Virus record (IMG/VR): IMGVR_UViG_3300012286_000299
Coordinates: 109,277-173,276 of that record
Reading direction: 5' to 3' (one strand)
DNA from: a virus
Taxonomy: Duplodnaviria; Heunggongvirae; Uroviricota; Caudoviricetes
Length of the DNA stretch: 64,000 bases
Under the pieces are notes generated by a model. The model was not told the DNA's origin. It saw nothing but the letters and a program-made list of their open reading frames with translations, and did not search any database. Positions 13,540 to 30,324 of the stretch are shown piece by piece (positions within the stretch are counted from its first letter, which is position 1; the number at the start of each line of letters is the position of its first letter). Position numbers and translations under genes: made by a program.

Positions 13540-14085
13540 ATGGATAAAAAAGTATGCAGTAAATGTAAAATTGAAAAAACTTTAGAAGAGTTTTCAATAG
13601 ATTTGTCTACTAAAAGTGGTAGAAAAAGTCAATGTAAAGAATGTAGAAAATTAATTTCTAAAAAGGAATATAAAAGTGATCCTTTATCTCATAATGTTAG
13701 AACTAGTGCTTATTATAAGGATAATAAAGAGTCTACTAGGAAGCAACAACGTGATTATGAAAGAAAACGTTTAAAAGTAGATCCCTTATTTAAATTAGGA
13801 AAATCAATGAGATGTCATTTGTATAGAATATTACAAGGACAAAAATCCATGAGTACTAAAGAATTATTAGGGTATAATGTTGAAGAATTAAAAATTCATA
13901 TTGAATCTCTTTGGGTAGAAGGAATGAATTGGGAAAATTGGGGTAAAGAATGGGAAATTGATCATATTTATCCTCTATCTCAATATTTAAAAGAAGGAGA
14001 AACTAGGCCTAGTATAATTAATAGTCTTAAAAATCTTCAACCTATAAGTAAAATTGAAAATCGAAAAAAATCAAATAAGTTATAA
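13540..14085 (+). CDS. HNH homing-type endonuclease
   Basis: N-terminal Cys4 (CSKCKIEK...CKECRK) and an HNH core EIDHIYPLSQ...NLQPISKIENRKK. Paralogous to 50911..51546. Confidence 0.65.
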   Translation: MDKKVCSKCKIEKTLEEFSIDLSTKSGRKSQCKECRKLISKKEYKSDPLSHNVRTSAYYKDNKESTRKQQRDYERKRLKVDPLFKLGKSMRCHLYRILQGQKSMSTKELLGYNVEELKIHIESLWVEGMNWENWGKEWEIDHIYPLSQYLKEGETRPSIINSLKNLQPISKIENRKKSNKL

Positions 14086-15812
14086 TGTATAAGAATATTG
14101 TTACGAATTCATTAGGGAAAAATAGATATAAGGTCATTTTATACACTGATGATGGAGTTGAAGAACATGAATTTCAAAATTATGCATATGAAGTGTGTAG
14201 CCAAAACCAGGCTACACATTTTGGTCTAAATGGAGAACCTTTAATGAAAACTACTTATTGGGATAAAACCAATCCCTTTATTCATTATCATGATATGCCT
14301 ATTCATCAAAAATTTTTAATTGATAAATATGGTACTAATGATGAACCCTCAACTACACATCAAGAAATATTTTTTGATATTGAGATTGAAATGGGAGGTG
14401 CTCTTACACCTGAGTACATTAGAAAAGCTCCAAAACCTGTTACTTCAATTGCTTGGTGGCATAAACAAGAAGATAAATGGTATATTTTAATTTTAGATAA
14501 AGATAATAAAATTGAAAAAACTACTATAGAGAATAAATATATTATTCCTGTACCTAACGAAAGAGAATTATTAAATAAGTGGTTAAATTATTTGAACAAA
14601 GTTAACCCTGATATCTTAATTGGCTATAATAGTGATTACTTCGATATACCTTACCTATACTATAGAATACTAAATCAATTAGGTGAACGTAGAGCTAATG
14701 CTTTCTCTCCAATAGGTAAAGTTAAAGAACAAAAACATTCAAATGAATCAGGAATGGTTTTTTGGAATGAAGAACAACCTATAAGAATAGAAGGAATGTA
14801 TTCTTTGGATTACATTCGCTTACATAAAAAATATTCGTTTGCAGATGAACCATCTTATAAATTAGATGCTTTAGGAGAAAAGTATTGTAAATTAGGTAAA
14901 ATTGAATATGAAGGTAGTTTAGACAGATTATTTGAAACTGATAAAGAAAAATTCATTGAATATAACTTTCGAGATGTTGAAATCCTAAAAGCACTTGATA
15001 ATAAATTTAATTATATTAGTTTAACTAAAAATCTAGCTCATAAGGGTAAAATCCATTATGATGATGTTTATCAATCATCTAAAATTCATGATGGAGCTAT
15101 TTCAGCATTCTTATTATCAGAAGATATAATTCCTCCTTCACGAGATAGAAACCCAATTAAAAAAGCTAATTACGCTGGTGGTTATTTGTTTTGTCCTAAA
15201 GCAGGGTTATATCGCTATATGTTTGATGAGGATTTAACTTCACTATACCCATCAATTATTATGTCTCTTAACATTGGTAAAGAAACATTAATAGGTAGAA
15301 TTATTGATTTAAATGATAGAAACAATCATTTAGGTTTAAATGATTTAATAAATGATATTGAAGATAGACCTCGTACTATGGAATGGTTTACTAATAAAGA
15401 TAAGTTCAGTAAAATTGATTGGACTTCTTCTAAAGTAGTTAAACTAATTCAACAATATAATTTGGCTATCTCAGCAAATGGTGTTATCTTTCGTACAGAT
15501 AAAGAGTCTGTATTATCAACTATTCTGAATAAGTGGTTTGATGAAAGGGTTTTATACAAAAATAAAATGAAAGCTGCATATAAAGCAGGAGATACAGTAG
15601 GTGGTGAGAAATATCATTTATTGCAATATACAATGAAAATCTTACTTAATTCACTTTATGGTGCTACAGCATTACCTTCATTTAGATATGGGAATGTAAT
15701 TCTATCAGAAGCAATCACTTTAAGTGGACAACGTATTATTCAAGAATCAGCACTTTGTGCTAACAGACATATGAACAAAGTTATTCGTGGTGAAATTAAA
15801 TTAGAGATATAA
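14085..15812 (+). CDS. family-B DNA polymerase, N-terminal fragment (3'-5' exonuclease plus polymerase motifs A and B)
   Basis: Exo I FDIEIEM, Exo II YNSDYFDIPYL, motif A DLTSLYPSIIMSLNIG, motif B KILLNSLYGA. Stop lies 50 aa after motif B. Confidence 0.85.
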   Translation: MYKNIVTNSLGKNRYKVILYTDDGVEEHEFQNYAYEVCSQNQATHFGLNGEPLMKTTYWDKTNPFIHYHDMPIHQKFLIDKYGTNDEPSTTHQEIFFDIEIEMGGALTPEYIRKAPKPVTSIAWWHKQEDKWYILILDKDNKIEKTTIENKYIIPVPNERELLNKWLNYLNKVNPDILIGYNSDYFDIPYLYYRILNQLGERRANAFSPIGKVKEQKHSNESGMVFWNEEQPIRIEGMYSLDYIRLHKKYSFADEPSYKLDALGEKYCKLGKIEYEGSLDRLFETDKEKFIEYNFRDVEILKALDNKFNYISLTKNLAHKGKIHYDDVYQSSKIHDGAISAFLLSEDIIPPSRDRNPIKKANYAGGYLFCPKAGLYRYMFDEDLTSLYPSIIMSLNIGKETLIGRIIDLNDRNNHLGLNDLINDIEDRPRTMEWFTNKDKFSKIDWTSSKVVKLIQQYNLAISANGVIFRTDKESVLSTILNKWFDERVLYKNKMKAAYKAGDTVGGEKYHLLQYTMKILLNSLYGATALPSFRYGNVILSEAITLSGQRIIQESALCANRHMNKVIRGEIKLEI

Positions 15813-16075
15813 TGGCATTAAAAGGACAATCAATTAGAAACGGGGTTACTATTAATATAAATGGTGTTAAAGCCGAAAAACAATTAGTTATTGATTTATC
15901 TGAAAATTGGGATGAATCACAAGAAAGATTCTTTAAGAAAATGCTTAAACAAGGAGGAAAATGTAAAGTTAATGGAAACTCATTTGAAATTATCCTCAAA
16001 GAAAGATCTGATATAGATTCAAAAGGAAATAGACCTATTAATTTACCACCAGTACCAGGAGAAAGAACATTTTAA
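15812..16075 (+). CDS. small ORF inside the polymerase split
   Basis: 87-aa ORF in a different frame, exactly filling the 264-nt insertion between the two polymerase cistrons. Confidence 0.35.
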   Translation: MALKGQSIRNGVTININGVKAEKQLVIDLSENWDESQERFFKKMLKQGGKCKVNGNSFEIILKERSDIDSKGNRPINLPPVPGERTF

Positions 16076-16076
16076 T

Positions 16077-17012
16077 ATGAAACATTTAGAAGATACCCCA
16101 TGGTGGATATGTGATGAAGGTGATTTTAATTTTTGTGCTTATGTTGATACAGATTCTAATTATTTCAATGCTGAGCCATTATTGAAACATTTATATCCTG
16201 ATTTTGATGAAAAAACTGATCAAGAAAAAGATGATTTATTAGAGAAAGTAGCTCTTAAGTACCAAGATATTATAACTGAACACTATGATATACTTGCTAA
16301 AGAAGCCTTTAATATTAGTACACACCGATTAGAAATGAAAACTGAGTGTGTTATTCGTTCTGCTTATTTTAGAGCTACAAGACGTTATGCTCAATGGATT
16401 ACTAAAAAAGAAGGTATAGCAAAAGAGGAATTAGACATTAAAGGATTAGAATTTAAAAAAGCTAATTTCCCTAAATATTTTGGAAAGTTTTATCAAGAAA
16501 TTCTTGAATTAATCATTAAAGGTACTTCACAGAGTATTATAGATAAGAAAATTCATGAATTTAGACAAGAAGCAACCTCAACTGATATAGATTTTACCCT
16601 TATAGGTAACCCAACATCAGTTAAAACATTAAATGAGTATATAGCTTCCCACCCTAAACCAGGTAAAATATTATCTGAAATAAAATCAGGAGCTGGTGCA
16701 TCAGTTAAAGCTTCTATCAAACATAATGATTTATTACGATTTTGGCAATTAGATTCAAAACATAGTCAAATAGTACAAGGTGATAAAGTAAAATGGGTTT
16801 ATTTAAAAAATAACCCTTATAATATAGAAGCTATTGCATTTTTAGAATTTGATATGGCTGATAAAATCAAAGACTTCATTAATGAATATATTGATAGAGG
16901 GAAAAGTTTTGAAACTATATTACAGAAAAAACTACAAGGCTTCTATGATGACCTTGAATGGATGTTACCACCAGCAAATCCACTAATACATAAATTTTTT
17001 ACATTCAACTAA
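16077..17012 (+). CDS. family-B DNA polymerase, C-terminal fragment (motif C plus thumb)
   Basis: Own ATG; motif C CAYVDTDSNYF 22 aa from the start; KKANFPKYF (KxY-like). Confidence 0.8.
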   Translation: MKHLEDTPWWICDEGDFNFCAYVDTDSNYFNAEPLLKHLYPDFDEKTDQEKDDLLEKVALKYQDIITEHYDILAKEAFNISTHRLEMKTECVIRSAYFRATRRYAQWITKKEGIAKEELDIKGLEFKKANFPKYFGKFYQEILELIIKGTSQSIIDKKIHEFRQEATSTDIDFTLIGNPTSVKTLNEYIASHPKPGKILSEIKSGAGASVKASIKHNDLLRFWQLDSKHSQIVQGDKVKWVYLKNNPYNIEAIAFLEFDMADKIKDFINEYIDRGKSFETILQKKLQGFYDDLEWMLPPANPLIHKFFTFN

Positions 17013-17734
17013 TGGATAAAACAATATTAACACAAATAATTGAAAGCTTTTACTTAAATGGATTAACATCTCAAGTTAAATTTAAGGTAAAAAACAACGA
17101 AGCTCACATTAAATTTGCAGTCGACAATAAGGATTGCATAGGAGAAGTTATTGCGCCTATAACTTTAGAAGATTGCGAGATTGGTATTTTTAATACTAGT
17201 CAATTACTTAAATTAATTAATATAACTAATGATTTTATTGATTTAAAATTAGAAAAAAATGGTATTCACTTTTTAAAACTTCATATTAGTGATAACCAAT
17301 TTGATTTATCATATAATTTAAGTGATTTAGGGTTAATTCAAGATCCTGGTGTAGTTCCTAATTTACCTCCTCATGATTTAGAATTTGATATTAATTTTGA
17401 TTTTACTCAAAAATATATTAAAGCACATAACGCATTAGATAAACCACCTCGTTTTGAAATAGGTGTATCTAAAGATTTTAAAAATGATGAAGTTATAAAT
17501 TTCATGATTGGTGAAAAATCATCTTATTCAAATAAAGCAAATTTTGCAGAATCTGGGAAAATTATAAATAAAATAAAACCTATAGCATTTAGTGCTAATA
17601 ACTTTAGAGAAGTAATATCTGTAAATAAAAATGCAGTAGGTAAGGTATGTGTTTATAAAGATGGGTTGTTAAAAATTAATCTAGAAGAAGCAGGAGTAAA
17701 ATCAGAATATTTTCTTGTAGCTTTACATGAGTAG
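17012..17734 (+). CDS. putative sliding clamp / polymerase accessory protein
   Basis: 240 aa, translationally coupled (TAATG) to the polymerase, similar in size to gp45-type clamps. No diagnostic motif. Confidence 0.3.
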   Translation: MDKTILTQIIESFYLNGLTSQVKFKVKNNEAHIKFAVDNKDCIGEVIAPITLEDCEIGIFNTSQLLKLINITNDFIDLKLEKNGIHFLKLHISDNQFDLSYNLSDLGLIQDPGVVPNLPPHDLEFDINFDFTQKYIKAHNALDKPPRFEIGVSKDFKNDEVINFMIGEKSSYSNKANFAESGKIINKIKPIAFSANNFREVISVNKNAVGKVCVYKDGLLKINLEEAGVKSEYFLVALHE

Positions 17735-17806
17735 TAATATTTATGACAAATGACCTAAGGGCAATTAATAACGAGTAGCAAAAGCACTCACAAAACGTAA
17801 ATCAAT

Positions 17807-18214
17807 ATGAGTACAAAATTTAATGAATTTGACATTCTATTCCACAATTTCTTTTACCCAACAAGTGGATTCGGTTCAGCAGCAACCACAAAACAACCTC
17901 ACCCTTTAAATATCTTTTATGACGATAACGGACTTCACTTTGAAGTAGCGTGTACTGGTCTTACTAAAGATGAGGTAAATGTAGATATCGAGGATGATAT
18001 CTTAAAAATTAGTTATAATAAAGCAGAAGAAGAAAAAGAACTTCATCCTGGAACAATCGTAAGAGGATTGTCTAAAAAATCTTTTAATTTAGGTTATAAA
18101 ATTTCAGCTAAATATGATTTGTCATTAGCACTAGCAAAACTAGAAAATGGTTTGCTAGAAATTTCTATACCTGTAGCTGAAAAAGCAAAACCAAAATCAA
18201 TAAAAATAAAATAA
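17807..18214 (+). CDS. small heat-shock protein (Hsp20/alpha-crystallin family)
   Basis: Alpha-crystallin domain pattern: DDNGLHFEVACTGLTKDEVNVDIEDDILKIS...ENGLLEISIP. Confidence 0.65.
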   Translation: MSTKFNEFDILFHNFFYPTSGFGSAATTKQPHPLNIFYDDNGLHFEVACTGLTKDEVNVDIEDDILKISYNKAEEEKELHPGTIVRGLSKKSFNLGYKISAKYDLSLALAKLENGLLEISIPVAEKAKPKSIKIK

Positions 18215-18299
18215 AAATCTAAGCCCTTAGGTTAAGTTTTATTTGGAGATTCAAGAAAAATTTATTATATTATATAATAAAAATTTAATTATAAAAGTT

Positions 18300-18602
18300 A
18301 TGGCAAATCCTCAATTCAAAGGTAGACAAAAAGGATCTATCAAAAAAACATCAACAATTTCCGATCCATCATTGGGTAATTTTAAAATTATCGTAGATGA
18401 TGAAAGTTATAATCTAGTTTTAACTGACCCTGAAACTGGAAAGGAAAAAATTATTGGTTATTATACTAGATTAACTAATGCTTTAAAGTATGTAGTTAGA
18501 ACCCAAACAGTTGAGAAAAAACCAACTTATACTATTAAAGAATATATCCAAGAATTAGAAACAGTTTTAAACAATTTAAACAATTTAATTAACAATGAGT
18601 AA
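18300..18602 (+). CDS. hypothetical protein
   Basis: The track ORF 18243 starts inside the upstream hairpin and leader. The ATG at about 18300 (MANPQFKG...) follows an AT-rich leader. Confidence 0.4.
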   Translation: MANPQFKGRQKGSIKKTSTISDPSLGNFKIIVDDESYNLVLTDPETGKEKIIGYYTRLTNALKYVVRTQTVEKKPTYTIKEYIQELETVLNNLNNLINNE

Positions 18603-18888
18603 ATTAGAATCAAGAGGTGGTAGTATCATCTTAAAACAACTTGAAGAAAATGAAATGAAAGTTGGTAACATCATTATCCCTGATAATGGTCATGAAAAAT
18701 CACTTGTAGCTGAAATTATAGCAGTATCAGATGTATTTAATTGGCATAGAGGAGAATTTGTACCATCAGATCTAAAAATAGGTCAAAAAGTAGTAATCCC
18801 ACCAATGGGAGCACAAAAATTAACATTAGATAATGTAGATTATTTAATCATTTCACAAGAACAAATCCCAGCAATAATAGTAGATTAA
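18595..18888 (+). CDS. groS: co-chaperonin GroES (Cpn10)
   Basis: 97 aa with the GroES fold pattern: GGSIILKQ..EMKVGNIIIPD...EIIAVSD...GQKVVIPPMGAQKL..DNVDYLIISQEQIPAII. Directly upstream of groEL. Confidence 0.75.
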   Translation: MSKLESRGGSIILKQLEENEMKVGNIIIPDNGHEKSLVAEIIAVSDVFNWHRGEFVPSDLKIGQKVVIPPMGAQKLTLDNVDYLIISQEQIPAIIVD

Positions 18889-18890
18889 TT

Positions 18891-20531
18891 ATGACAGAAA
18901 CAGTATTTGGACCCGAATTAAAATCAAAACTATTAGAAGGAGTTAGAAAACTCAATAATAGTGTATCATCTACCCTAGGACCAGCAGGTAGAACAGTATT
19001 AATTAAAGGTGAGTATGGTCAATTAACCGTAACTAAAGACGGTGTATCCGTAGCTAAGGCTTTTAAAGAATTAGAAGATCCAGTAGAATCTACAGGTGCA
19101 GAATTAGTACAAAAAGTATCAGTTAAATCCGCAAATGAAGTTGGAGATGGAACAACTACAGGTACTTTATTAACCTATGCTCTTTTAGAAGAAGGTTTAA
19201 AACATGTTAATGCAGGACAAAATGCAGTAGAAATTAAAAAAGGTATTGATGCTGCTGTAGAAGAAATTAAATCCTCACTTAACAATTTAACAGAAGATAT
19301 TTCTGATAACCAACAAATTAAAGAAGTTGCTACTATTTCAGGTAATAACGATGAAGAAATTGGTAATTTAATTGCTACTGCTTTAGAAAAAGTAGGCAGA
19401 GATGGAGTAGTTGCTATTGAAGAGTCTAAATCAGGCGAAACTTCACTTGAAGTTGTAGAAGGTATGCAGTTTGATAGAGGTTACAAATCACCTTATTTTG
19501 TAACTGATAATAATACAATGACAGCTGTATTAGATAACCCATATATTTTAATTTATAATGGTAGAATTACTAACCACCAAGAATTAATTCCAGCTTTAAC
19601 TTTAGCTAACACTGAAAAACGTTCATTATTAGTAGTAGCAGAAGATATTGATGGTGAAGCATTAGCAGTAGCTATTGTTAATAAAATGAGAGGTATTGTA
19701 AATGTTGTTGCTGTTAAAGCTCCTGATTTTGGAGATCGTAGAACAATGGCTTTAGAAGATTTAGCTATTATTACAGGTGGTCAAGTTTTATCTAAAGATA
19801 AGGGGCATAAATTAGAAAAAATTGATGTTAATACCTTAAAACAATGTTTAGGTACATCTCGTACTGCTACAATTGGAAAAGAGAAAACTACTATTGTAGA
19901 TGGTAAAGGTGAAGAAGAAGCTATTACAACTAGAGCTCAAGAAATTAAAAAACAAATTGATGACGCTGGTTCACCATTTGAAAAAGAAAAATTACAAGAG
20001 CGTTTAGGTAAGATGATTGGTGGAGTAGCTATTATTAACGTAGGTGGTAATAGTGAATTAGAAATCAAAGAGAAAAAAGATAGAGTAGAAGATGCTTTAT
20101 TCGCTACAAGAGCTGCTTTAGAAGAAGGTATTGTAGTAGGTGGTGGTACTGCTTTATTATATGCTAGAAAATCTATTACATTTGAAGGTGCAAATGATTT
20201 TGTTTTAGGTAAAAAAATAGTTTATAAAGCTGTAACAGCACCCTTCCAGAAAATTTTAACTAATGCCGGACACGATCTTGTAGAAGTACAATATTTAGGT
20301 TCTAAATTAACTGATTCTGAAAAAGGAAGTAATTGGGCAGGTCTTAATTATAAAGATTTATCAACAATGGATTTCAAATCAGCAGGTATTATTGATCCTA
20401 AAAAAGTAACTCGTATTGCATTAGAAAATGCAGCATCAGTTGCAGGTACAATTTTAACAACTGAATCTGTAATCTACGAGAAAAAAGAAGACAATAAAGA
20501 AGAAATCAATCCTATGCAAGGAATGATGTAA
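18891..20531 (+). CDS. groL: chaperonin GroEL (Cpn60)
   Basis: LGPAGRTVLI, AVKAPDFGDRR, GGGTALL and the C-terminal Gly-Met tail PMQGMM, in 546 aa. Confidence 0.9.
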   Translation: MTETVFGPELKSKLLEGVRKLNNSVSSTLGPAGRTVLIKGEYGQLTVTKDGVSVAKAFKELEDPVESTGAELVQKVSVKSANEVGDGTTTGTLLTYALLEEGLKHVNAGQNAVEIKKGIDAAVEEIKSSLNNLTEDISDNQQIKEVATISGNNDEEIGNLIATALEKVGRDGVVAIEESKSGETSLEVVEGMQFDRGYKSPYFVTDNNTMTAVLDNPYILIYNGRITNHQELIPALTLANTEKRSLLVVAEDIDGEALAVAIVNKMRGIVNVVAVKAPDFGDRRTMALEDLAIITGGQVLSKDKGHKLEKIDVNTLKQCLGTSRTATIGKEKTTIVDGKGEEEAITTRAQEIKKQIDDAGSPFEKEKLQERLGKMIGGVAIINVGGNSELEIKEKKDRVEDALFATRAALEEGIVVGGGTALLYARKSITFEGANDFVLGKKIVYKAVTAPFQKILTNAGHDLVEVQYLGSKLTDSEKGSNWAGLNYKDLSTMDFKSAGIIDPKKVTRIALENAASVAGTILTTESVIYEKKEDNKEEINPMQGMM

Positions 20532-20538
20532 TAAATTT

Positions 20539-20560
20539 GGAGTCTCGAAAGAGACTCCAT
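20539..20560 (+). terminator. intrinsic terminator after groEL
   Basis: Hairpin ggagtctc-gaaa-gagactcc followed by an A/T-rich tract. Confidence 0.55.
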
Positions 20561-20573
20561 ATATTAAAAAGTT

Positions 20574-21485
20574 ATGTTCAATAAAAAACACACTATTTGG
20601 GTAGAAAAATACAGACCAGATACTTTAGAAGGGTATATTGGTAATGAATTTTTTGTAGAGAAATTAAATCAATGGGTAGGAGATAATGATATCCCTCATC
20701 TATTACTTACAGGTCCTGCTGGTACAGGAAAAACAACTGCTGCTAAATTAATAGTAAATAATATTAATTGTGATTTTATCTACATTAATTGTTCAGATGA
20801 AAATGGTGTTGATACTATTAGAGATAAAGTAAAATCGTTTGTTTCCGCTGCTAGTTTTAAACCACTTAAAGTGGTTATAATGGATGAAGCAGATTTCTTA
20901 ACACTTAATGCTCAAGCATCTTTAAGAAACGTAATTGAAACTTATAGTTTAAATGCTCGTTTTATATTTACTTGTAATTTTGTAGAAAGAATTATGGAAC
21001 CAATTCAATCTAGAACAAATATATTTGAATTAATGCCTCCTTCTATGCAAGATGTAGCATTCAAATGTGTTGAAATTTTAGATTTAGAAAAAATTACTTA
21101 TACTAGAGCAGATATAGTAAGAATTGTAAAACAAACTTACCCTGATATTAGAAAGTGTTTAAACTTACTCCAAATATCTATTAGAAATGGAGAATTAATT
21201 GAAAGTAGAACTTCATCTAATTTTAAACAAACCTCTGACCAAGTAATAGAATTACTTAAAACTAAAAACGTTAAAAACTTTACTGCTATAAGACAGTTAG
21301 TAATGGATTCTAATGTTAGAGATTACAACGAGTTATATAGAGTATTATTTGAAAGAGCAGATGAATTTAATGAATCTGCTGTTACTACTCTTATAATAGC
21401 TGATTACCAACACAAATCAATTATGGCACCTGATAAAGAAATTACATTTTGTGCCTGTATCGCTAAATTATTAACAACTAAATAA
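20574..21485 (+). CDS. clamp-loader AAA+ ATPase (RFC/gp44-like)
   Basis: Walker A LLLTGPAGTGKTT, Walker B VVIMDEADFLT and sensor IQSRTNIF (an SRC-like SRT). Confidence 0.75.
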   Translation: MFNKKHTIWVEKYRPDTLEGYIGNEFFVEKLNQWVGDNDIPHLLLTGPAGTGKTTAAKLIVNNINCDFIYINCSDENGVDTIRDKVKSFVSAASFKPLKVVIMDEADFLTLNAQASLRNVIETYSLNARFIFTCNFVERIMEPIQSRTNIFELMPPSMQDVAFKCVEILDLEKITYTRADIVRIVKQTYPDIRKCLNLLQISIRNGELIESRTSSNFKQTSDQVIELLKTKNVKNFTAIRQLVMDSNVRDYNELYRVLFERADEFNESAVTTLIIADYQHKSIMAPDKEITFCACIAKLLTTK

Positions 21486-21487
21486 AA

Positions 21488-21736
21488 ATGGAAGGACAAC
21501 AACCACAAATGAGCTTAGATTTAAGCAAAACAACTCCAATTTTAACTGCTGCTGGCGGTAAAATTTGGCATCAAGGATACCTTTTAAGAAAAGTATCTAA
21601 ATTTATAACTGGTACTAATGAAGACAATGTGCTACCAATCCAAGTATTCTATGATCCAGAAACTGGTGAGATTTTAAAAGATGGTTTACCTGATGAGTTT
21701 AAATTCATTTTAGAAGATGGACAAGAAAATCAATAG
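21488..21736 (+). CDS. hypothetical protein (possibly a clamp-loader small subunit)
   Basis: 82-aa ORF immediately after the clamp loader. Confidence 0.35.
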   Translation: MEGQQPQMSLDLSKTTPILTAAGGKIWHQGYLLRKVSKFITGTNEDNVLPIQVFYDPETGEILKDGLPDEFKFILEDGQENQ

Positions 21737-22139
21737 TATATTTGATTGGGTAAAACAAATGTCTTATGATAAAGAATCATGGTCCTCATTTTCGAATGAG
21801 GAGCATGAAATCTTTAGTAATTTTATGGTTAACAAAATAATTTCAATGAATCCTAACTATATTGAGTTAGTAGCTGAAATACAAGAATACCAAATGCCCA
21901 AACAAAAACTATATGAATTTTATTGTAAAACTTTACCTAAACAAAAATTCTTTAACAAATATCAAAAACCCTCTAAACAACAATACCCAAAAGAAGTAAT
22001 AAATTTATTAACACTTTATTATCAAATAAGTACAAGAGAAGTTTTAGATTACTGTAATATCTTAACACAACAAGATATAAAAGATATTTTATTACAATTA
22101 GGTAAAGATGAAAAAGAAATCAAAAAATTACTAAAATGA
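21717..22139 (+). CDS. hypothetical protein
   Basis: 140-aa ORF. Confidence 0.45.
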   Translation: MDKKINSIFDWVKQMSYDKESWSSFSNEEHEIFSNFMVNKIISMNPNYIELVAEIQEYQMPKQKLYEFYCKTLPKQKFFNKYQKPSKQQYPKEVINLLTLYYQISTREVLDYCNILTQQDIKDILLQLGKDEKEIKKLLK

Positions 22140-22420
22140 GTGATTCAATAAAAAAATTTGAAGAAATGAATGATAGAGAAATGCATTTCACCATTGATGA
22201 TGATGAAAATAATATGGTAATACATCCAAATCACTATGGAGGTAAAGATAACCCTTATGAGGCTATCAAAGTTATAGAAGCTTGGGAAGTAGGATTTAAT
22301 TTAGGTAATACACTTAAATATATTTCCAGAGCAGGTAAAAAAGATAATATAATCCAGGATTTAGAAAAAGCTCTATTTTATTTAGATAGAGAAATCCAAA
22401 ATAGAAAAAAACTTGGCTAA
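22136..22420 (+). CDS. hypothetical protein
   Basis: 94-aa ORF, ATGA-coupled. Confidence 0.4.
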   Translation: MSDSIKKFEEMNDREMHFTIDDDENNMVIHPNHYGGKDNPYEAIKVIEAWEVGFNLGNTLKYISRAGKKDNIIQDLEKALFYLDREIQNRKKLG

Positions 22421-23384
22421 ACAAATCCCACCAGTATTAAAGGATCTTAAGAAGGTAATAGTTCCACCCGTCAACTACGAAGTTAATAAGTATATATCGT
22501 ATTCTCAATTAAGTATGTTTTCTAACTGCCCTTTTCAATGGGGTTTGAGATATAGAGATGGCTTTAAAGTATTTGAACCAAGTATACACGCGGTATTTGG
22601 AACAGCATTACACTTAACTCTACAAAACTATTTAACAGTATTGTATGAAGAAAGTGGTGTAGCAGCAGATCATTTAGATATTGAGACAGATTTTAAAAAT
22701 GCTTTAAAAAACGAATACAAACTTACTTTAGAAAAGAATAATAATGTTCATTTTTCTACAGCTGCGGAATTAGCAGAATTTTGTGATGATGGGATTCAAA
22801 TCCTTAATTTCATTAGAGAAAAACGAGCTGCTTACTTTTCTAAAAAAGGTTGGTATTTAGTAGGTTGTGAGTTACCAATTGTTTTGAACCCTATTAAAAC
22901 TCTAGAAAAAGTCTTTATAACAGGTTTTATTGATGTAGTGTTTTACCATGAACCAACTAATACAATTAAGATTCTTGATATAAAGACTTCAACTAGAGGT
23001 TGGGGTGACAAAGAAAAGAAAGATGATGTTAAAGTGACTCAAATACTTCTATACAAAAAGTTCTTTGCAGAACAATATGATTTCCCAATGGATAACATTG
23101 AGGTAGAATTCTTTATTACAAGAAGAAAAGTATATGAAGGTGGAGATTTCCCACAAAAACGAATTCAAGAATTTAAACCTGCTGCAGGTAAAATAAAATT
23201 GAATAAATCTACACAATTATTAGAAGGGTTTTTAAAACAAGTATTTGATTCTGAAGGGAATTACAATATGGCCGAATTAGAGAAAAAACCAAGTAAACGT
23301 AATTGTCATTTTTGTCCTTACAAAAATAATCAAGATTTATGTGATAAAAACGAGGATATTAAAAAAACATTCAAATTTTATTAG
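22413..23384 (+). CDS. PD-(D/E)XK nuclease with a C-terminal Cys cluster (Cas4/RecB-like exonuclease)
   Basis: GFIDVVFYH...ILDIKTS (D...D/E-x-K core) and C-terminal CHFCPYKNNQDLCDKN, typical of Cas4-like Fe-S nucleases. Confidence 0.6.
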   Translation: MAKQIPPVLKDLKKVIVPPVNYEVNKYISYSQLSMFSNCPFQWGLRYRDGFKVFEPSIHAVFGTALHLTLQNYLTVLYEESGVAADHLDIETDFKNALKNEYKLTLEKNNNVHFSTAAELAEFCDDGIQILNFIREKRAAYFSKKGWYLVGCELPIVLNPIKTLEKVFITGFIDVVFYHEPTNTIKILDIKTSTRGWGDKEKKDDVKVTQILLYKKFFAEQYDFPMDNIEVEFFITRRKVYEGGDFPQKRIQEFKPAAGKIKLNKSTQLLEGFLKQVFDSEGNYNMAELEKKPSKRNCHFCPYKNNQDLCDKNEDIKKTFKFY

Positions 23385-23619: not shown

Positions 23620-25044
23620 ATGAAAGAAGGTTATATACCAAAAGAACAAAGAAAAAAGATATTATTCATTTGTGATGATATCAGAATGCACTCGGGTGTA
23701 GCTACAATGGCTCGAGAAATAGTTTTAGGAACCTCTCACCATTATAACTGGGTAATAATTGGAGCAGCTATTGATCATCCTGAATCAGGACAAAGATTAG
23801 ACTTATCTGATGCTACTAACAAAGAAACTGGAAATGAGGATACAAATGTAATTATCTATCCTAGTAATGGATATGGAAGTGCTGATTTAATCAGATATAT
23901 GATAAAGAATGAAAAACCTGATGGGTTAATGTTCTTTACGGATCCAAGATATTATGACTGGTTATTTGCTATCGAAAATGAAGTAAGAAAACAAATACCA
24001 ATGATTTACTTAAACATTTGGGATGATTTACCTGCTCCACTTTATAATAGAGCATTCTATGAATCATGTGATGCTTTATTAGCTATCTCAAAACAAACCA
24101 AAAACATTAATGAAATGGTTTTAGGTAAAAAAGCAGATGGTAAAGTTATCTCTTATGTACCTCATGGTATTAATGAAAAAATGTTTTATCCTATAGAAGA
24201 TAAAACACAGTTACAAGAAACTAAGAAAAAATTATTTGGAGATAAAGAATTTGATTTTGTATTATTCTTTAATTCACGTAATATTAGGAGAAAATGTACT
24301 AGTGATTTATTAGCAGCTCATAAAATGTTTTTAGATTCTTTACCTAAAGAAAAAGCTGATAAAATTGCCTTAGTATTACATACACAAGTTGTAGATAATA
24401 ATGGTACTGATTTAGATGCTGTTAGAACTTTATTATTTGGTAAGAAATCAAACATATTCTTTTCAGATCAAAGAATTGATACTGCTGAGTTAAATAGAAT
24501 TTATAATATATCTGATGCTGTAGTATTACCTTCTTCAAATGAAGGATGGGGATTAGCAATAACTGAAGCTATGATGGCTGGTAAAATGATAATCGCTAAT
24601 GTAACTGGAGGTATGCAAGATCAAATGCGTTTTGAGGATGAAAATGGTAAATGGATTGAATTAACACCTGAATTTCCTTCTAATCATTTTGGTACTTATA
24701 AAAAATGTGGTAAGTGGGCTGTACCTGTATTCCCTAATAACATGTCATTAGTAGGTTCACCTATAACTCCTTATATTTGGGATGATAGATTAGATTTTAG
24801 AGACTTAGCAAATGCTATTAATCAGGTTTATGAATTATCTCCTGAAGAAAGAGTAGAAAATGGTAAAGCAGCTAGAGAATGGGTAACTTCTGATGAATCT
24901 GGTATGAGTGCTAGAATGATGTGCAATAATGTAATTAAAGATATTGATTTAACTTTAGAAACATTTAAACCTAAAAAATCATTTGATCTACTTTTAGTAG
25001 AAGATTTGGAACCTCTAGAATTAGTTCATAAATTAACGTATTAA
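23620..25044 (+). CDS. glycosyltransferase, GT-B fold (GT4-like)
   Basis: E-x7-E motif region LPSSNEGWGLAITEAMMAGKMII; 474 aa. Confidence 0.7.
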   Translation: MKEGYIPKEQRKKILFICDDIRMHSGVATMAREIVLGTSHHYNWVIIGAAIDHPESGQRLDLSDATNKETGNEDTNVIIYPSNGYGSADLIRYMIKNEKPDGLMFFTDPRYYDWLFAIENEVRKQIPMIYLNIWDDLPAPLYNRAFYESCDALLAISKQTKNINEMVLGKKADGKVISYVPHGINEKMFYPIEDKTQLQETKKKLFGDKEFDFVLFFNSRNIRRKCTSDLLAAHKMFLDSLPKEKADKIALVLHTQVVDNNGTDLDAVRTLLFGKKSNIFFSDQRIDTAELNRIYNISDAVVLPSSNEGWGLAITEAMMAGKMIIANVTGGMQDQMRFEDENGKWIELTPEFPSNHFGTYKKCGKWAVPVFPNNMSLVGSPITPYIWDDRLDFRDLANAINQVYELSPEERVENGKAAREWVTSDESGMSARMMCNNVIKDIDLTLETFKPKKSFDLLLVEDLEPLELVHKLTY

Positions 25045-25102
25045 TTAGATAAGATAAGTTTTCCATTGGGTACATATATTTATTATCATAAATACGTACC
25101 TA

Positions 25103-25774
25103 ATGGATTATCAAAGAATTTACAACCAATTAATAGAAAAAGCTCAAAGTAGAACCTTAGAAGGTTATATTGAAAAACATCATATTATCCCTAAATGTCT
25201 AGGAGGAAGTAATGATAAAGAAAATTTAGTAGAATTAACAGCAAGAGAACATTTTTTATGTCATATGTTACTTTGTGAGATTTATCCTAAAGAAAATAAA
25301 CTAAAACATGCCTTATTTTTAATGTCTATTGGTAAACAAAGGATTAAAGAAAAACATTATGTTGTTGGTTCTAGAGTTTATGAAAGGCTTAAAACTGAAT
25401 ATTCTCAATTTTTAACAGGTAAAAAACAATCACAAGAAACTAAAGATAAAAAGAGTAAAGCTATGTTAGGAATTTGGGAAGATAAAACCCAAGAAGAAAA
25501 ATCTAAGATAGGACAAAAAAGATGGGACACTAGAATCAAAAATGGGACTACTAATATTAAAAGTATTAATAGAAGTAAATCATTAAAGGGTAGAGAAATT
25601 ACATGGGACCGAGGAGTTAATAAAATCATTATTCAATATGATAAACAAAATAACTTTATTAAAGAATGGTCTAGTATATCAGAAGCTCAAAGGCAAATAG
25701 GAGGGGATATTAAAGGTGCTTTAGCAGGGAGGCAAAAAACTGCTGCAGGTTTTATTTGGAAATACAAAAACTAG
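25103..25774 (+). CDS. HNH homing-type endonuclease
   Basis: EKHHIIPKCLGGSNDKENLVELTAREHFLCH (HNH core) plus a C-terminal IENR/NUMOD-like region. Sits between two glycosyltransferase genes. Confidence 0.6.
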   Translation: MDYQRIYNQLIEKAQSRTLEGYIEKHHIIPKCLGGSNDKENLVELTAREHFLCHMLLCEIYPKENKLKHALFLMSIGKQRIKEKHYVVGSRVYERLKTEYSQFLTGKKQSQETKDKKSKAMLGIWEDKTQEEKSKIGQKRWDTRIKNGTTNIKSINRSKSLKGREITWDRGVNKIIIQYDKQNNFIKEWSSISEAQRQIGGDIKGALAGRQKTAAGFIWKYKN

Positions 25775-25797
25775 TTATTATATTAAAATAAAAAAAA

Positions 25798-27105
25798 ATG
25801 AAAAATACATTTGTGATATCATGTCCCATAGATTGTTATGCAGGGTATGGAGCACGTTCACGTGATTTAGTTAAAGCGTTAATTAATTTAGATAAATACG
25901 ATGTTAAAATAATGCCTCAACGTTGGGGAAATACACCTTGGAGTTTTATTGAAGATCATCAAGAAGAATGGGGATTTTTACAACCACATATTTTAACAGG
26001 TCAGTTAACTCAACAACCTGATATTTGGGCTCAAATAACAGTACCTAATGAATTTCAAGCTATTGGAAAATATAATATTGGAATAACAGCGGGTATCGAA
26101 ACTACTATTTGTGCTCCTCAATGGATTGAGGGTATGAATAGAATGAGTTTAAATTTAGTTTCATCAGAACATGCTAAAAAAGTATTTCAAGATTCTAAAT
26201 TTCAAAAACATGATGAAAGGACTAAACAAGTTGTTGGTGTAATAGAATTAACATCTCCTATTGAAGTATTATTTGAAGGAGTAGATATTGTTAAATACTT
26301 TGCATCTACATTAACTCCTACTTCCGAAATAAAGCAAGCCTTAGATAATGTAAAAGAAGAGTTTGCATTTTTATTTGTGGGTCATTGGCTTCAAGGTGAT
26401 TGGGGTCAAGATAGAAAAGATGTAGGAGGGTTAGTTAGAGTATTCTTAGAAGCCTTTAAAAATAAATCTAAAAAACCTGCTCTTATATTAAAAACAATGT
26501 CAGGTCCAACTAGTATTATAGATAGAGATAATATCTTGAAAAAAATAGACGTTATAAGACAATCTATGCCTACTAAAAACTTACCTAATATTTACTTATT
26601 TCATGGTGAAATATCAGACGATGAAATGAATCAATTATATAACCATTCTAAAGTAAAAGCAATGGTTAGTTTTACTAAAGGAGAAGGATTTGGTAGACCT
26701 TTACTTGAATTTACTCAAACTAAAAAACCAGTTATTGCTTCAAATTGGAGTGGACAATTGGATTTCTTAAACCCTGAATTTACTTCATTAATACCTGGTA
26801 CTTTAACTAATATTCATCCATCTGCTCAAGTTAAGGATATGTTAATTGATGGTTCACAGTGGTTTACAGTAGATTATGGATTTGCTGGTGGTATATTAAG
26901 AGATTATTTTGAAAATTATAAAAAATATCAAGATAATGGTAAACGTTTAGCACATTATTGTAAAACTAATTTCTCATTTGAGAAAATGCAAGAAAAATTA
27001 GATACTATATTAACTGCTAATATACCTGAGTTTCCAAAGCAAGTGCAATTGAAATTACCTCAATTAAAAAAGGTTGAGTTACCTAAATTAAAAAAAGTAG
27101 AATAA
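25798..27105 (+). CDS. glycosyltransferase, GT-B fold (putative)
   Basis: FTKGEGFGRPLLEFTQTKKPVIASNWSGQLDFL resembles the GT4 E-x7-E donor-binding block; 435 aa. Confidence 0.5.
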   Translation: MKNTFVISCPIDCYAGYGARSRDLVKALINLDKYDVKIMPQRWGNTPWSFIEDHQEEWGFLQPHILTGQLTQQPDIWAQITVPNEFQAIGKYNIGITAGIETTICAPQWIEGMNRMSLNLVSSEHAKKVFQDSKFQKHDERTKQVVGVIELTSPIEVLFEGVDIVKYFASTLTPTSEIKQALDNVKEEFAFLFVGHWLQGDWGQDRKDVGGLVRVFLEAFKNKSKKPALILKTMSGPTSIIDRDNILKKIDVIRQSMPTKNLPNIYLFHGEISDDEMNQLYNHSKVKAMVSFTKGEGFGRPLLEFTQTKKPVIASNWSGQLDFLNPEFTSLIPGTLTNIHPSAQVKDMLIDGSQWFTVDYGFAGGILRDYFENYKKYQDNGKRLAHYCKTNFSFEKMQEKLDTILTANIPEFPKQVQLKLPQLKKVELPKLKKVE

Positions 27106-27106
27106 A

Positions 27107-27559
27107 ATGAAAGATAAATTATCTATATGCCCACGTTGCGGGAGTGATGCTTGTTATGTCACTCCTGTAAATGAAGTAAAAAACAACTATTTCTGTTTTG
27201 GATGTGGTTTTCAAACAAATGACCTAATGAAAGAAGGTGAATTTGATTTTGAAACATATGAAGAACCATTACCTGAACTATATAAAGATCTTAAAAACAC
27301 TGATTCAGAAAAACGTGTTTGGTATCCAATTACTATTAATATTCAGGATAAAGGAACGGTATTTGCCAATGGAAAAACCAAAGATAATTGGACATGGGCA
27401 GGAGTAAAGGCCGTTGAAGTAAGCGAAGAAGAAAAAGGTAAATTTAAAATACCTGGTACTGAAGATTACTATACTCATAAAACTGATATTAAATCTTTAA
27501 AGAATTATCCACAAGATGATTTTATTGAAGCCCTAGATTATATAGGTTTTTATAATTAA
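27107..27559 (+). CDS. zinc-ribbon protein
   Basis: CPRCGSDACYV...CFGCGF at the N-terminus. Confidence 0.4.
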   Translation: MKDKLSICPRCGSDACYVTPVNEVKNNYFCFGCGFQTNDLMKEGEFDFETYEEPLPELYKDLKNTDSEKRVWYPITINIQDKGTVFANGKTKDNWTWAGVKAVEVSEEEKGKFKIPGTEDYYTHKTDIKSLKNYPQDDFIEALDYIGFYN

Positions 27560-27562
27560 TAT

Positions 27563-28180
27563 ATGAGAATAAGTTATGCAATTCCTGTTTGTAATGAACA
27601 TGAAGAATTAATGAGATTACTAAGCATCCTCATCACCAATAAAAGAGATGAGGATGAAATAGTAGTTCAATGTGATCAGGGTAATACTACACCTGAAGTA
27701 TATAAAGTATTAGACCAATTTTTTGGTAGAATAAGTGTTATAGAATTTCCATTAAAAGGTAATTTTGCGGCTTTTAAAAATAATTTAAAGAAGCATTGTA
27801 CTGGAGAATGGATTTTTCAAATTGATGCTGATGAATACGTAACTATTGAATTTTTACAAAGTTTACATTTAATTTTACAAGATAATCCTACAACAGAAGT
27901 ATTTTTGCTTCCTAGAATTAATACTGTAGAAGGATTAACTCAAGAGCATATTAATAAATGGAGATGGAATGTAAATGAGAAAGGATGGGTTAACTTCCCA
28001 GATTTACAACCTCGTATACTTCAAAATTCACCTAAAATTAATTGGGGTAATAAAGTACATGAAGTACTAATGGGTCATAGTACATGGTCTACTTTACCAT
28101 TAGAAGATGATTATTGTCTGTATCATCCAAAACATATTGAAAGACAAGAACGACAAAATAATTTATACGATTTATTATGA
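27563..28180 (+). CDS. glycosyltransferase family 2-like (putative)
   Basis: N-terminal ISYAIPVCNEHEEL resembles the GT2 ...IPxYNE... start, with EIVVQCDQGNTT at the DxD-like position. Confidence 0.4.
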   Translation: MRISYAIPVCNEHEELMRLLSILITNKRDEDEIVVQCDQGNTTPEVYKVLDQFFGRISVIEFPLKGNFAAFKNNLKKHCTGEWIFQIDADEYVTIEFLQSLHLILQDNPTTEVFLLPRINTVEGLTQEHINKWRWNVNEKGWVNFPDLQPRILQNSPKINWGNKVHEVLMGHSTWSTLPLEDDYCLYHPKHIERQERQNNLYDLL

Positions 28181-29529
28181 TAAAATTTATAATATTTGAT
28201 TTAGATGGTGTTTTAGTAGAAGCCAAAAATATTCATTTTGAAGCTTTAAATGAAGCTTTAGGAAAAAAATATGAAATATCTTGGAATGAACATTTAAGTA
28301 AATATGATGGTTTAAAAACAAATCAAAAACTTGAAATGTTAACTCAAGATAAAGGGTTACCTGTTGCATTATATAAACAAGTTTGGGATGAAAAACAACG
28401 ATTAACTTTACATAAGTTAAAAAACTTACAACCTGATACTCAATTAATGGTTTGTATGGATTCATTAGTACAACAAGGTTATAAATTAGCAGTATGTTCA
28501 AATAGTATACGTAAAACTGTATTAACAGTGTTATCTAAATTAAATATAATTGAAAATTTTGATTTAATATTATCTAATGAAGACGTAAAGAATAGTAAAC
28601 CTCATCCTGAGATTTATTGGAAAGCCATATCACAAATGGGTTTTTTACCTGAGGAAACACTTATTGTTGAGGATTCACCTTATGGTTTACTAGCCGCAAG
28701 CAGGAGTAAAGCTTCTGTAATGAGAGTTGGATCCCCAAAAGATATTTCGTATAATAACATTTATAAATACTTAAACCAAGAAAAAATGAATTTAACACCT
28801 AAATGGAAAGATGACAAATTAAATGTTTTAATTCCTATGGCTGGAGCTGGTTCACGTTTTGAACAAGCAGGTTATACTTTTCCTAAACCTCTAATAGAAG
28901 TAAAAGGTAAACCAATGATCCAAGTTGTAGTTGAAAACTTAAACTTAGAAGCAAATTATATTTATGTAGTACAAAAAGCTCATAGACAAAAATATAACTT
29001 AGATACATTATTAAATCTAATTACACCAGGATGTAAAATTGTAGAGACTGATGGGTTAACTGAAGGAGCAGCATGTACTGCTTTATTAGCTAAAGAATTT
29101 ATAGACAACAATGCTCCATTGTTTTTTGCTAATTCAGATCAATTTGTAGAATGGGACTCAAATGAATTTATGTATAAAATGAATGAAACTAACGCTGATG
29201 GTGGTATTGTTTCATTTACTGCTACTCACCCTAAATGGTCATTTGCTAAAGTTGATGAAAACGGATTAGTAACTAAAGTTGCTGAGAAAAATCCTATTTC
29301 AGATATAGCAACTGTAGGATATTACTACTGGAAACATGGTTCAGATTTTGTTAAATATGCTGAGCAAATGATTGAAAAAAATATAAGAGTAAATAATGAA
29401 TTCTATGTATGTCCTGTATTTAATCAAGCAATTGAAGATTGTAAACAAATCCGAACTTTTAACACTAATGGAATGTGGGGTCTTGGAACACCTGAAGATT
29501 TAAATTATTATTTAGAACATTATGTATAA
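28177..29529 (+). CDS. bifunctional HAD-superfamily hydrolase / sugar- or alcohol-phosphate nucleotidyltransferase
   Basis: N-terminal HAD motifs FIIFDLDGVL (I), SKPHPEIY (III, Lys) and VEDSPYGLLAA (IV). C-terminal nucleotidyltransferase P-loop LIPMAGAGSRF (G-x-G-[ST]-R), compare LicC/RmlA/HddC-type. Confidence 0.6.
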   Translation: MIKFIIFDLDGVLVEAKNIHFEALNEALGKKYEISWNEHLSKYDGLKTNQKLEMLTQDKGLPVALYKQVWDEKQRLTLHKLKNLQPDTQLMVCMDSLVQQGYKLAVCSNSIRKTVLTVLSKLNIIENFDLILSNEDVKNSKPHPEIYWKAISQMGFLPEETLIVEDSPYGLLAASRSKASVMRVGSPKDISYNNIYKYLNQEKMNLTPKWKDDKLNVLIPMAGAGSRFEQAGYTFPKPLIEVKGKPMIQVVVENLNLEANYIYVVQKAHRQKYNLDTLLNLITPGCKIVETDGLTEGAACTALLAKEFIDNNAPLFFANSDQFVEWDSNEFMYKMNETNADGGIVSFTATHPKWSFAKVDENGLVTKVAEKNPISDIATVGYYYWKHGSDFVKYAEQMIEKNIRVNNEFYVCPVFNQAIEDCKQIRTFNTNGMWGLGTPEDLNYYLEHYV

Positions 29530-30322
29530 ATTACATATAGTAATACCTATTGGAGTAAGTTCACCTGGGACTCCAGTACCTGAATTTTTATTAAATGGTA
29601 TAGAAAGTTTAAAAGAACAAACATTAGATGATATTCTAATTACAGTAGCAGCTGACGAAAATATATCAGATGAATGTAAACAAGTATTAAAAGATACAGG
29701 TGTAAATGTTGAATGGTTTCCTGAGTATTCTTATTTTACTAAAGAAGGAATTTGGGGTAAAATATTTAAATGTTGGGAAAATTATGATTCACAATATGTT
29801 TCATTTCTTCATTATGATGATCTTTGGGAAAGTAATAAAGCTTTAAATCAAATTAATTTTATTGAAAAAAACAATTTAGATGGTTGTTGGTCCCAAGTAT
29901 ATCTTATAAATGATAATAATGAAATTACTAGTGGAGATAGTATGCAAATTAGTAAATTATCTGCTAATTCTGTAGGATATTTAATTCCATGGATGTGTCA
30001 TTCTACTATTATAAAAAAAGATACCATATTAAACTGTGGAATATTAGAATATAGAGAAAAATGGAATTGTGATTTTGAATGGTTATATACTGTATTTTTA
30101 CATAAAATTAAAAACCTAATGAAATGTGAGGATGCTATATTTTTATGGAGACAACATGAAAGTCAAGTATCACACGCTCAAGGGATTAATATGAAAGAAG
30201 ATAATAATCATGTTAAAGAACAAAGAGAACTTGTAGGTTATTCGTTTGATGAAACCATGGAAGATTCTCGTTATGTGATGGAAAATATAAATTTAGAGGA
30301 GATTAAAAAACTATACAAATAA
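29522..30322 (+). CDS. hypothetical protein (possible glycosyltransferase)
   Basis: 266 aa with a HIVIPIGVSS...TLDDILITVAADEN N-terminus within the glycosylation island. Confidence 0.3.
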   Translation: MYKLHIVIPIGVSSPGTPVPEFLLNGIESLKEQTLDDILITVAADENISDECKQVLKDTGVNVEWFPEYSYFTKEGIWGKIFKCWENYDSQYVSFLHYDDLWESNKALNQINFIEKNNLDGCWSQVYLINDNNEITSGDSMQISKLSANSVGYLIPWMCHSTIIKKDTILNCGILEYREKWNCDFEWLYTVFLHKIKNLMKCEDAIFLWRQHESQVSHAQGINMKEDNNHVKEQRELVGYSFDETMEDSRYVMENINLEEIKKLYK

Positions 30323-30324
30323 AA

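Follow-up and report, generated by a model that had tools for sequence, protein, structure and literature searches.

A chaperone cassette of an uncultured T4-like phage lineage, with candidate RNA elements around its hsp20 gene

Introduction

Does a phage that carries its own hsp20, groES and groEL genes possess a working chaperone set, and how would such a set be expressed? The question is raised by a stretch of 64,000 nucleotides (nt) from a virus of the Caudoviricetes (IMG/VR record IMGVR_UViG_3300012286_000299, positions 109,277 to 173,276; the whole stretch is hereafter called the window), in which genes for a small heat-shock protein (sHsp) of the alpha-crystallin type, a GroES co-chaperonin and a GroEL chaperonin lie within positions 17,807 to 20,531. 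Judged from sequence, the block very probably constitutes a functional chaperone module of an uncultured T4-like phage, a reading supported by homology, by complete active-site and interface residues, by purifying selection and by conserved synteny. An earlier note on this DNA had described a complete chaperonin pair preceded by an sHsp. The three open reading frames (ORFs) were all recovered in place on the + strand with Pfam and PHROG names in agreement, and the GroES/GroEL pair is complete, with nothing to indicate inactivation, but a fourth gene, here called orfX (18300..18602, + strand), had been overlooked.

Sequence features of the three chaperones

The groEL gene (18891..20531, + strand) encodes a protein of 546 amino acids (aa) that matches Pfam Cpn60_TCP1 (E 1.3e-62, covering positions 1-489 of the 490 in profile PF00118) and the PHROG 'chaperonin groEL' (E 2.6e-142). 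It passes the NCBIfam equivalog TIGR02348 with 615 bits against a cut-off of 582.1, and NF000592 with 624 against 397, and is by sequence, scoring above the TIGR02348 cut-off, a canonical group I GroEL. The protein was aligned with Salmonella GroEL, to which it is 46% identical, and with the GroELs of Flavobacterium phage immuto and Bacteroides phage DAC16, and a census was taken of 79 viral homologues. Truncated or inactive ATP-binding motifs, which the earlier note had named as the observation that would speak against its claim, were not found in the full alignment, the core ATP-site residues being intact and the protein not truncated. Identity with Salmonella extends over T30-P33, K51-G53, D87-T91, I150, S151, D398, G414-G416, I454, N479, I493 and D495, so that the GP loop (30-33), KDG (51-53), DGTTT (87-91), D398, GGG (414-416) and D495 are the enterobacterial residues; the exceptions at the nucleotide site are A152G and A480W. 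Among the 79 viral GroELs T30-P33, K51-G53, D87-T91, I150, S151, D398, G414-G416 and D495 are invariant, and N479 and I493 vary. The hinge glycines are kept. In the apical domain, for which a comparison with a bacterial GroEL had been proposed, the residues that bind substrate and GroES are retained or conservatively replaced: seven of Y199, S201, Y203, F204, L234, L237, L259, V263 and V264 are identical to those of Salmonella, and the two changes, L234I and V263I, are conservative.

The groES gene (18595..18888, + strand) ends with its stop codon 2 nt before the groEL start, and the order GroES before GroEL is kept in related loci. Its 97-aa product is a Cpn10 protein (Pfam PF00166, E 5.6e-17, 62 bits against a cut-off of 21.1, profile positions 6-93 of 93) that also matches GroES structures in the PDB. 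It is 30% identical to bacterial GroES (E. coli, Salmonella) and keeps the roof hairpin. The mobile loop reads VGNIIIPD and contains the hydrophobic tripeptide I-I-I, immediately before which Asn substitutes for Gly (GGIVL in Salmonella, GNIII in the window); nearly all of the 79 relatives are alike in this respect.

The hsp20 gene (17807..18214, + strand) encodes 135 aa, of which residues 39-134 form an alpha-crystallin domain (Pfam HSP20, PF00011, E 6.9e-13, 49 bits against a cut-off of 20.8), belongs to PHROG 432 and has sHsp matches in the PDB. A C-terminal I/V-x-I/V sequence is the anchoring motif of sHsps, and the protein ends in KPKSIKIK with I-K-I inside.

That the three proteins cooperate is inferred, as are their clients, the ring number and the host. 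Hsp20 would act as an ATP-independent holdase that keeps newly made or stressed phage proteins soluble, and GroEL capped by the phage GroES would provide an ATP-driven folding cage. The altered mobile loop of GroES (Gly to Asn) suggests a tuning to the phage GroEL and not to that of the host. By analogy with the T4 capsid protein, which needs GroEL and gp31, the likeliest clients would be large virion proteins. The earlier proposals of a large capsid or glycosyltransferases as clients, and of independence from the stress state of the host, are speculation.

Conservation and selection of the cassette

A scan of IMG/VR returned more than 500 viral contigs with GroEL relatives, of which 80 were retrieved, with GroEL identities of 58-96%. 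The cassette was present in at least 60 IMG/VR contigs. In the clade with at least 67% GroEL identity the order is an ORF of 240 aa, hsp20, orfX, groES, groEL and clamp loader. In the clade at about 60% identity hsp20, a small ORF, groES and groEL are kept and the neighbouring genes differ, and synteny is conserved over viral contigs down to 58% GroEL identity. Two distant relatives (L068, positions 4396-4995, and L072, 4390-4995) have groES separated from groEL by an inserted ORF of about 200 aa, possibly a homing endonuclease gene or some other mobile gene.

Over about 20 close relatives the median ratio of nonsynonymous to synonymous substitution rates (dN/dS) was 0.12 for hsp20, 0.28 for orfX, 0.22 for groES and 0.11 for groEL, similar to the 0.09-0.13 of the flanking replication genes. 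All four genes are under purifying selection within the phage lineage.

Several observations weigh against the reading of a functional module. The tail of GroEL, which had been described as a retained GGM-type tail, is indeed rich in Gly and Met (EKKEDNKEEINPMQGMM, the protein ending in NPMQGMM), but GGM repeats are absent: the tail is cut down to a single GMM, compared with (GGM)4M in the enterobacterial protein, and the relatives end in PM(Q/A/M)GMM or in short GM-rich sequences. Many bacterial GroELs have a (GGM)n tail, which is not, however, a defining trait of the family. At the inter-ring contacts considered (R452, E461, S463 and V464), the window has Q in place of R452 and its relatives have K, Q, I or L, and insertions and deletions occur around E461 in a region that aligned differently in two alignments, so that a double ring cannot be assumed. 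With 51 bits the GroES stays under all of the NCBIfam GroES cut-offs (96-136) and is therefore a divergent member of Cpn10. The hsp20 gene is missing from the close relatives L007, L017 and L019, which keep orfX, groES and groEL; Hsp20 is thus dispensable and need not work with GroEL. A scan of GTDB for the closest cellular GroEL, limited in reach by its back-translated search patterns, gave only 24 loci of 35-59% identity and no firm donor lineage.

A small ORF coupled to groES

The start of orfX given by the ORF lister is a TTG at 18243, but all relatives start at the position of ATG 18300 (MANPQFKG...) and the upstream part is intergenic there. The 3' end of the resulting 100-codon gene overlaps the start of groES by 8 nt, which suggests translational coupling. 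Homologues of orfX were found 77 times in metagenomic data, on contigs of up to 170 kb, and all belong to this lineage; they are 93-105 aa long and have a basic KGR(Q/P)KG N-terminus. An AlphaFold2 model of moderate confidence (predicted local distance difference test score, pLDDT, 76) has a disordered, basic, Gly/Arg-rich N-terminus, a small beta-sheet and two helices. Foldseek gave no match to this model in the PDB at E <= 0.001, and in BFVD only uncharacterised and DUF5405 proteins at template-modelling (TM) scores of about 0.4-0.5. Sequence searches of Pfam, NCBIfam and PHROG gave nothing significant, with one weak match to PHROG 154 (E 5e-4), and the tight coupling to groES is the only clue to function.

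In the clade at about 60% GroEL identity the slot between hsp20 and groES holds another ORF, orfY, of 62-66 aa (for example L034, positions 4500-4688). That orfY is a shortened orfX was rejected by hhalign, which gave a probability of 0.2%. The slot is always occupied by a small conserved ORF, drawn from two unrelated families, orfX in the clade of the window and orfY in the more distant one.

RNA elements around hsp20

The hsp20 gene is bracketed by a left arm, ACCTAAGGGC (17753..17762, + strand), and a right arm, GCCCTTAGGT (18223..18232, + strand), which are perfect complements over 10 nt, the right arm starting 9 nt past the hsp20 stop codon. Over 52 distinct loci the arms vary jointly, in 31 variants (for example CTCTAGGGCGAG, TGTGAGTAGGCCT, TACTTGGTAGGCCT and CGACAGGCCTTTA), and their positions are constant, the start of the left arm being mostly 54-74 nt before the ATG and that of the right arm 2-13 nt after the stop codon. 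A perfect complement of at least 9 nt joins the two regions of the same locus in 43 of these 52 loci, which are mutually related so that helix counts are not independent events, compared with 214 of 2387 cross-locus pairs of different arm classes. The mean predicted RNA duplex energy was -29.1 kcal/mol for matched regions, -18.8 ± 5.2 kcal/mol when one region came from another locus and -13.6 ± 3.5 kcal/mol after shuffling. Beyond its perfect core the helix continues through bulges and G-U pairs and reaches 18-32 pairs, and the closing helix is present in both the minimum free energy and the centroid folds of 17738-18250 (z = -3.2). RNAalifold on the MAFFT alignment, in which the arms were misaligned between clades, recovered only a local hairpin and not the long-range helix, the support for which therefore rests on the comparisons of matched with mismatched regions.

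Among the 28 window genes that could be tested, the complement flanking hsp20 is the longest and the only GC-rich one, and the bracket was rejected as a general feature of window genes. Nor was it seen at the hsp20 genes of the cyanophages Syn9 and S-SSM4, which lack flanking 5'/3' complementarity and have duplex energies no better than those of shuffled sequences, or at that of Agrobacterium phage Atu_ph07; as a general trait of phage hsp20 genes it was likewise rejected.

A second element, the local hairpin of the hsp20 leader (17773..17789, + strand; GAGU-A-GC / AAAA / GC-ACUC), has 6 base pairs, a bulged A and a tetraloop and is followed by a conserved CACAAA. In the MAFFT alignment of 30 loci analysed with RNAalifold, 96.6% of the cells were paired and compensatory changes were found in four of the six pairs. 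The covariation score was 0.661, compared with 0.167 for shuffled alignments, none of 500 of which reached the observed value, and with at most 0.25 for slid controls. A search of 17600-20700 against Rfam at a permissive threshold gave nothing near a gathering score, only chance-level matches to small nucleolar and small RNAs with E >= 0.5, which sets the leader apart from the known RNA thermometers. In one sub-clade (L067, L075, L080 and L083) the leader hairpin is replaced by another that holds an AGGAGG sequence resembling a Shine-Dalgarno site.

Just upstream of the left arm lies an AT-rich motif, ATATTTATGA (17737..17746, + strand), in the conserved 5' block of alignment A2; the consensus of the relatives at this position, ATATTTATAAT, contains TATAAT, and the motif is regarded as a putative promoter. 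With this motif placed directly before the left arm, the helix may connect the 3' untranslated region of the hsp20 mRNA with the 5' end. A role at the RNA level is the likeliest reading, either as an RNase III-type processing site or as an end-to-end clamp by which the transcript would be stabilised or insulated. Whether the hsp20 transcript is controlled by a previously undescribed cis-RNA architecture, in which an ORF-enclosing helix of 10-30 base pairs is combined with a bulged-A hairpin about 20 nt before the AUG, is in our judgement evenly balanced.

The main rival to an RNA helix is a DNA-level explanation, in which hsp20 would lie on an invertible or mobile cassette and the arms would be its recombination sites; we regard it as possible but distinctly the less probable of the two. 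The relatives L007, L017 and L019 lack hsp20 and both arms together; the indel extends between the upstream gene's stop codon and a point about 9 nt beyond the right arm, and hsp20 therefore has the character of a self-contained cassette that can be dispensed with. Identical arms could likewise be maintained by recombination between inverted repeats, and the arm cores are partly palindromic (AGGCCT, CCTAAGG). Against this, hsp20 has the same orientation as groEL in 63 of 63 loci, with no inversion seen, and no recombinase gene adjoins it. The continuation of the helix through bulges and G-U pairs also speaks for RNA, as does the predicted pairing, which is stronger on the + than on the - strand in 40 of the 52 loci; a transcript that tolerates G-U pairs would give this asymmetry.

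If the RNA architecture is real, the helix would be an RNase III-type site or a clamp shielding both mRNA ends from exonucleases, sHsp output would be uncoupled from the replisome and orfX-groES-groEL transcripts, and the helix might respond to temperature or stress. The non-coding elements, among them also the shared promoter motif and the co-varying hairpin after groEL, offer testable hypotheses on the timing and stabilising of a phage holdase mRNA and double as signatures by which the lineage can be traced in metagenomes and metatranscriptomes. It is this architecture that is most worth following up.

Transcription layout

A window-wide search showed the motif [CT][AG]TATATTA, with the fuller consensus cTTCGTATATTA, 21 times on the + strand (19 of them intergenic) and once on the - strand. 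It lies mostly 16-40 nt before start codons, for example at 8388, 20558, 38216, 41688, 43416 and at sites from 49467 to 63579, and is densest in an array of small ORFs at 49-64 kb. From this distribution it is very probably a promoter element of the phage, and probably the main one. A scan for sigma-70 promoters and terminators did no better than chance, with 25 promoter-like sites in the window and 26.1 expected.

Upstream of orfX the window has an AT-rich palindrome (18256..18286, + strand; inverted repeat I19), a degenerate palindromic version of the motif, at the place where relatives carry the phage promoter motif TTCGTATATTA. Directly 3' of the groEL stop codon follows a hairpin of 9 base pairs with a GAAA loop (20538..20559, + strand). 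The terminator scan picked it up and listed it on the opposite strand; its sequence is palindromic. Its stem sequence varies among relatives with the pairing kept, and in more distant relatives canonical terminators with hairpin and U-tract occupy the same position; the hairpin probably marks the 3' end of a transcript or stabilises it. Because of the upstream promoter motif and the conserved hairpin after groEL, orfX, groES and groEL appear to form one transcription unit. The next unit would start with the clamp-loader gene, 16 nt upstream of which the promoter-like motif CATATATTA (20558..20566, + strand) is found. Expression of the chaperones would accordingly be divided between two units, an hsp20 mRNA closed by the helix between its 5' and 3' ends, and an orfX-groES-groEL mRNA with a promoter motif before it and a hairpin at its end.

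Comparison with known systems

The implication that a phage GroEL is unusual was borne out in part: among 50,697 deposited phage records 233 gave a match, some of them bacterial contigs, but rarity and novelty were overstated, as a survey of aquatic viromes and a cultured Flavobacterium phage make clear. According to Marine et al. (2017, ISME J, PMC5649160), viral GroEL genes are common in aquatic viromes, and one clade has GroES before GroEL in the bacterial order, with an sHSP upstream in 25 contigs and with Asn or Ser in place of a conserved loop glycine of GroES. This virioplankton clade agrees with the window in the order sHSP, GroES, GroEL, in its occurrence on viral metagenomic contigs and in the Gly-to-Asn loop. 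By these shared traits the window phage very probably belongs to the described virioplankton lineage with an sHSP upstream of GroES and GroEL, and the arrangement is not new. The passages of PMC5649160 drawn on here do not mention a small ORF between sHSP and groES, a placement in a T4-type replisome, a helix bracketing hsp20 or a leader hairpin. The small ORF coupled to groES, the replisome placement and the hsp20 helix and hairpin were thus not found in the cited literature to the extent that it was drawn on, nor, for the RNA elements, in Rfam.

The nearest GroEL of a cultured phage is that of Flavobacterium phage vB_FspM_immuto (Immutovirus), at 53% identity by tblastn and 54% by MAFFT, followed by those of Bacteroides phages at 48-49%. 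Like the window, immuto has an annotated adjacent pair of GroES and GroEL in this order, with genes for a DUF3310 and a PD-(D/E)XK protein nearby; its genome is 160 kb and carries 7-deazaguanine pathway genes. It differs in that hsp20 and orfX do not adjoin the pair, in that a family A DNA polymerase lies upstream and not a T4-type family B replisome, and in the GroES loop, which has Ser where the window has Asn. The T4-like cyanophages Syn9, S-SSM4 and S-ShM2 (PMC5028025) have sHsps of the alpha-crystallin type that are about 27-32% identical to the window Hsp20, and that of S-ShM2 is described with a C-terminal anchoring motif (PMC5028025). The GroES/GroEL of E. coli and Salmonella agree with those of the window in domain architecture, ATP site, apical surface and operon order, the differences in GroEL being the shortened tail, the loss of R452 and small insertions near residues 312 and 485.

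These comparisons bear on a further alternative, that no closed phage-only system exists: the GroES would retarget the GroEL of the host in the manner of gp31, or the GroEL would work without a lid in the manner of EL gp146, and the role of Hsp20 would be unrelated. Both modes occur in cultured phages. T4 gp31 and RB49 CocO provide a phage-specific lid for the GroEL cage, needed for the major capsid protein, and gp31 is a structural analogue of GroES only, acting on the host GroEL. The chaperonins of phages EL (gp146), OBP and AR9 are divergent, independent of a co-chaperonin and proposed to form a separate group, reported as single rings or as cycling between ring states (PMC7185714, PMC9598537). 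GroES-only phages also outnumber GroEL carriers in viromes (PMC5649160), and some close relatives of the window keep groES and groEL without hsp20. Yet unlike gp31 the window lid is a true Cpn10 homologue (Pfam E 5.6e-17) accompanied by a phage GroEL, and unlike the EL gp146 type the window GroEL passes the canonical equivalog cut-off, has an adjacent groES and, at 46% identity to Salmonella, stands close to canonical lid-dependent GroEL; no phage chaperonin chain was among its 58 PDB matches at E <= 1e-50. The 2-nt spacing of groES and groEL and their joint conservation in essentially every locus, the intact apical residues for the GroES loop and a lineage-specific Gly-to-Asn change that fits co-adaptation with the phage GroEL all make this alternative unlikely, and a phage GroES capping a phage GroEL is preferred.

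The gene content itself is no discovery; what the locus confirms is that a widespread uncultured T4-like aquatic lineage carries a complete chaperone set under selection. This bears on how large phages get their virion proteins folded when the chaperonins of the host may be ill suited to them, a problem that T4 meets with gp31 alone. The trio of sHsp, GroES and GroEL would also be a compact natural set for biochemistry on the co-adaptation of lid and cage, especially at the Gly-to-Asn loop.

Phage lineage, host and other features of the window

The window has a G+C content of about 29% throughout, a monotonic cumulative GC skew and long ORFs nearly all on one strand, and 16000-23000 is a continuous run of + strand ORFs. 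Upstream of the chaperone block come genes for a T4-type family B DNA polymerase and then the 240-aa ORF; downstream of it are those for both clamp-loader subunits, large and small, for a DUF3310 protein and for a PD-(D/E)XK nuclease, and DNA ligase and thymidylate synthase are also encoded in this densely packed region. With gp43 of T4-like phages the polymerase shares 28-34% identity. Megablast of 17000-21500 gave no match among the 50,697 phage records and thus no close cultured relative. The same gene order recurs in independent ENA, JGI/NCBI and Logan assemblies. Given the T4-type neighbours, the more than 500 viral relatives and this recurrence across assemblies, the source is a member of a widespread, uncultured T4-like phage lineage, with a genome of about 165-170 kb.

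That the block is instead a bacterial hsp20 and groESL operon, mis-assembled or a very recent passenger without a phage-specific role, is largely refuted and most improbable: the GroEL does score over a cellular equivalog cut-off, GroES before GroEL is the canonical bacterial order and a few fragments of 55-59% identity are binned in bacterial metagenome-assembled genomes (L084, L091), but T4-type replication genes flank the block on both sides and on the same strand without a break in composition, these junctions are repeated in dozens of viral contigs and assemblies of independent origin, identity to the clearly cellular GroELs recovered is only 44-48% (46% to Salmonella), the GroEL forms a deep family of its own in viral contigs (58-96% identical) and the genes evolve under purifying selection in the phage lineage.

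A low-GC member of the Bacteroidota is the probable host. This is suggested by the best PDB matches of GroEL, a reconstructed ancestral chaperonin of Fibrobacteres-Chlorobi-Bacteroidetes and a Chlorobaculum protein, by the homologues in phages of Flavobacterium and Bacteroides and by the absence of Shine-Dalgarno sequences from the window genes.

The T4-type polymerase is split into two ORFs, 14085-15812 and 16077-17012, which cover positions 22-567 and 565-846 of PHROG 262. A conserved 87-aa ORF with no assigned function (15812-16075) lies exactly between the two halves, and the split is kept in relatives. The 240-aa ORF between the polymerase and hsp20 (17012-17734) had no match in Pfam, PHROGs, NCBIfam or the PDB, and its label as a sliding clamp like T4 gp45 is based only on size and position. 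The thymidylate synthase homologue at 6274-7509 has 411 aa compared with about 335 positions in the PHROG profile, implying an insertion of roughly 100-130 aa. A sugar-modifying cluster at 23620-36384 encodes two proteins like glycosyltransferase family 1, a GtrB-like protein and a fusion with a HAD hydrolase; glycosyltransferases had been proposed as possible clients of the chaperones, and the relative L108 additionally has an epimerase/dehydratase. Upstream of its polymerase, L108 (759-3834, syntenic with about 9.4-11.5 kb of the window) has genes for PTPS (QueD-like) and GTP cyclohydrolase I, and a radical-SAM gene is present in another assembly. Together they suggest DNA modification by a 7-deazaguanine pathway, for which Flavobacterium phage immuto has annotated genes. 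ARAGORN reported a tRNA-like gene at 55298-55367 with an abnormal, undetermined anticodon ('ca'). Two identical stretches of at least 52 nt, each with the promoter motif, lie at 59826 and 60697, about 870 nt apart, and suggest a local duplication inside the small-ORF array.

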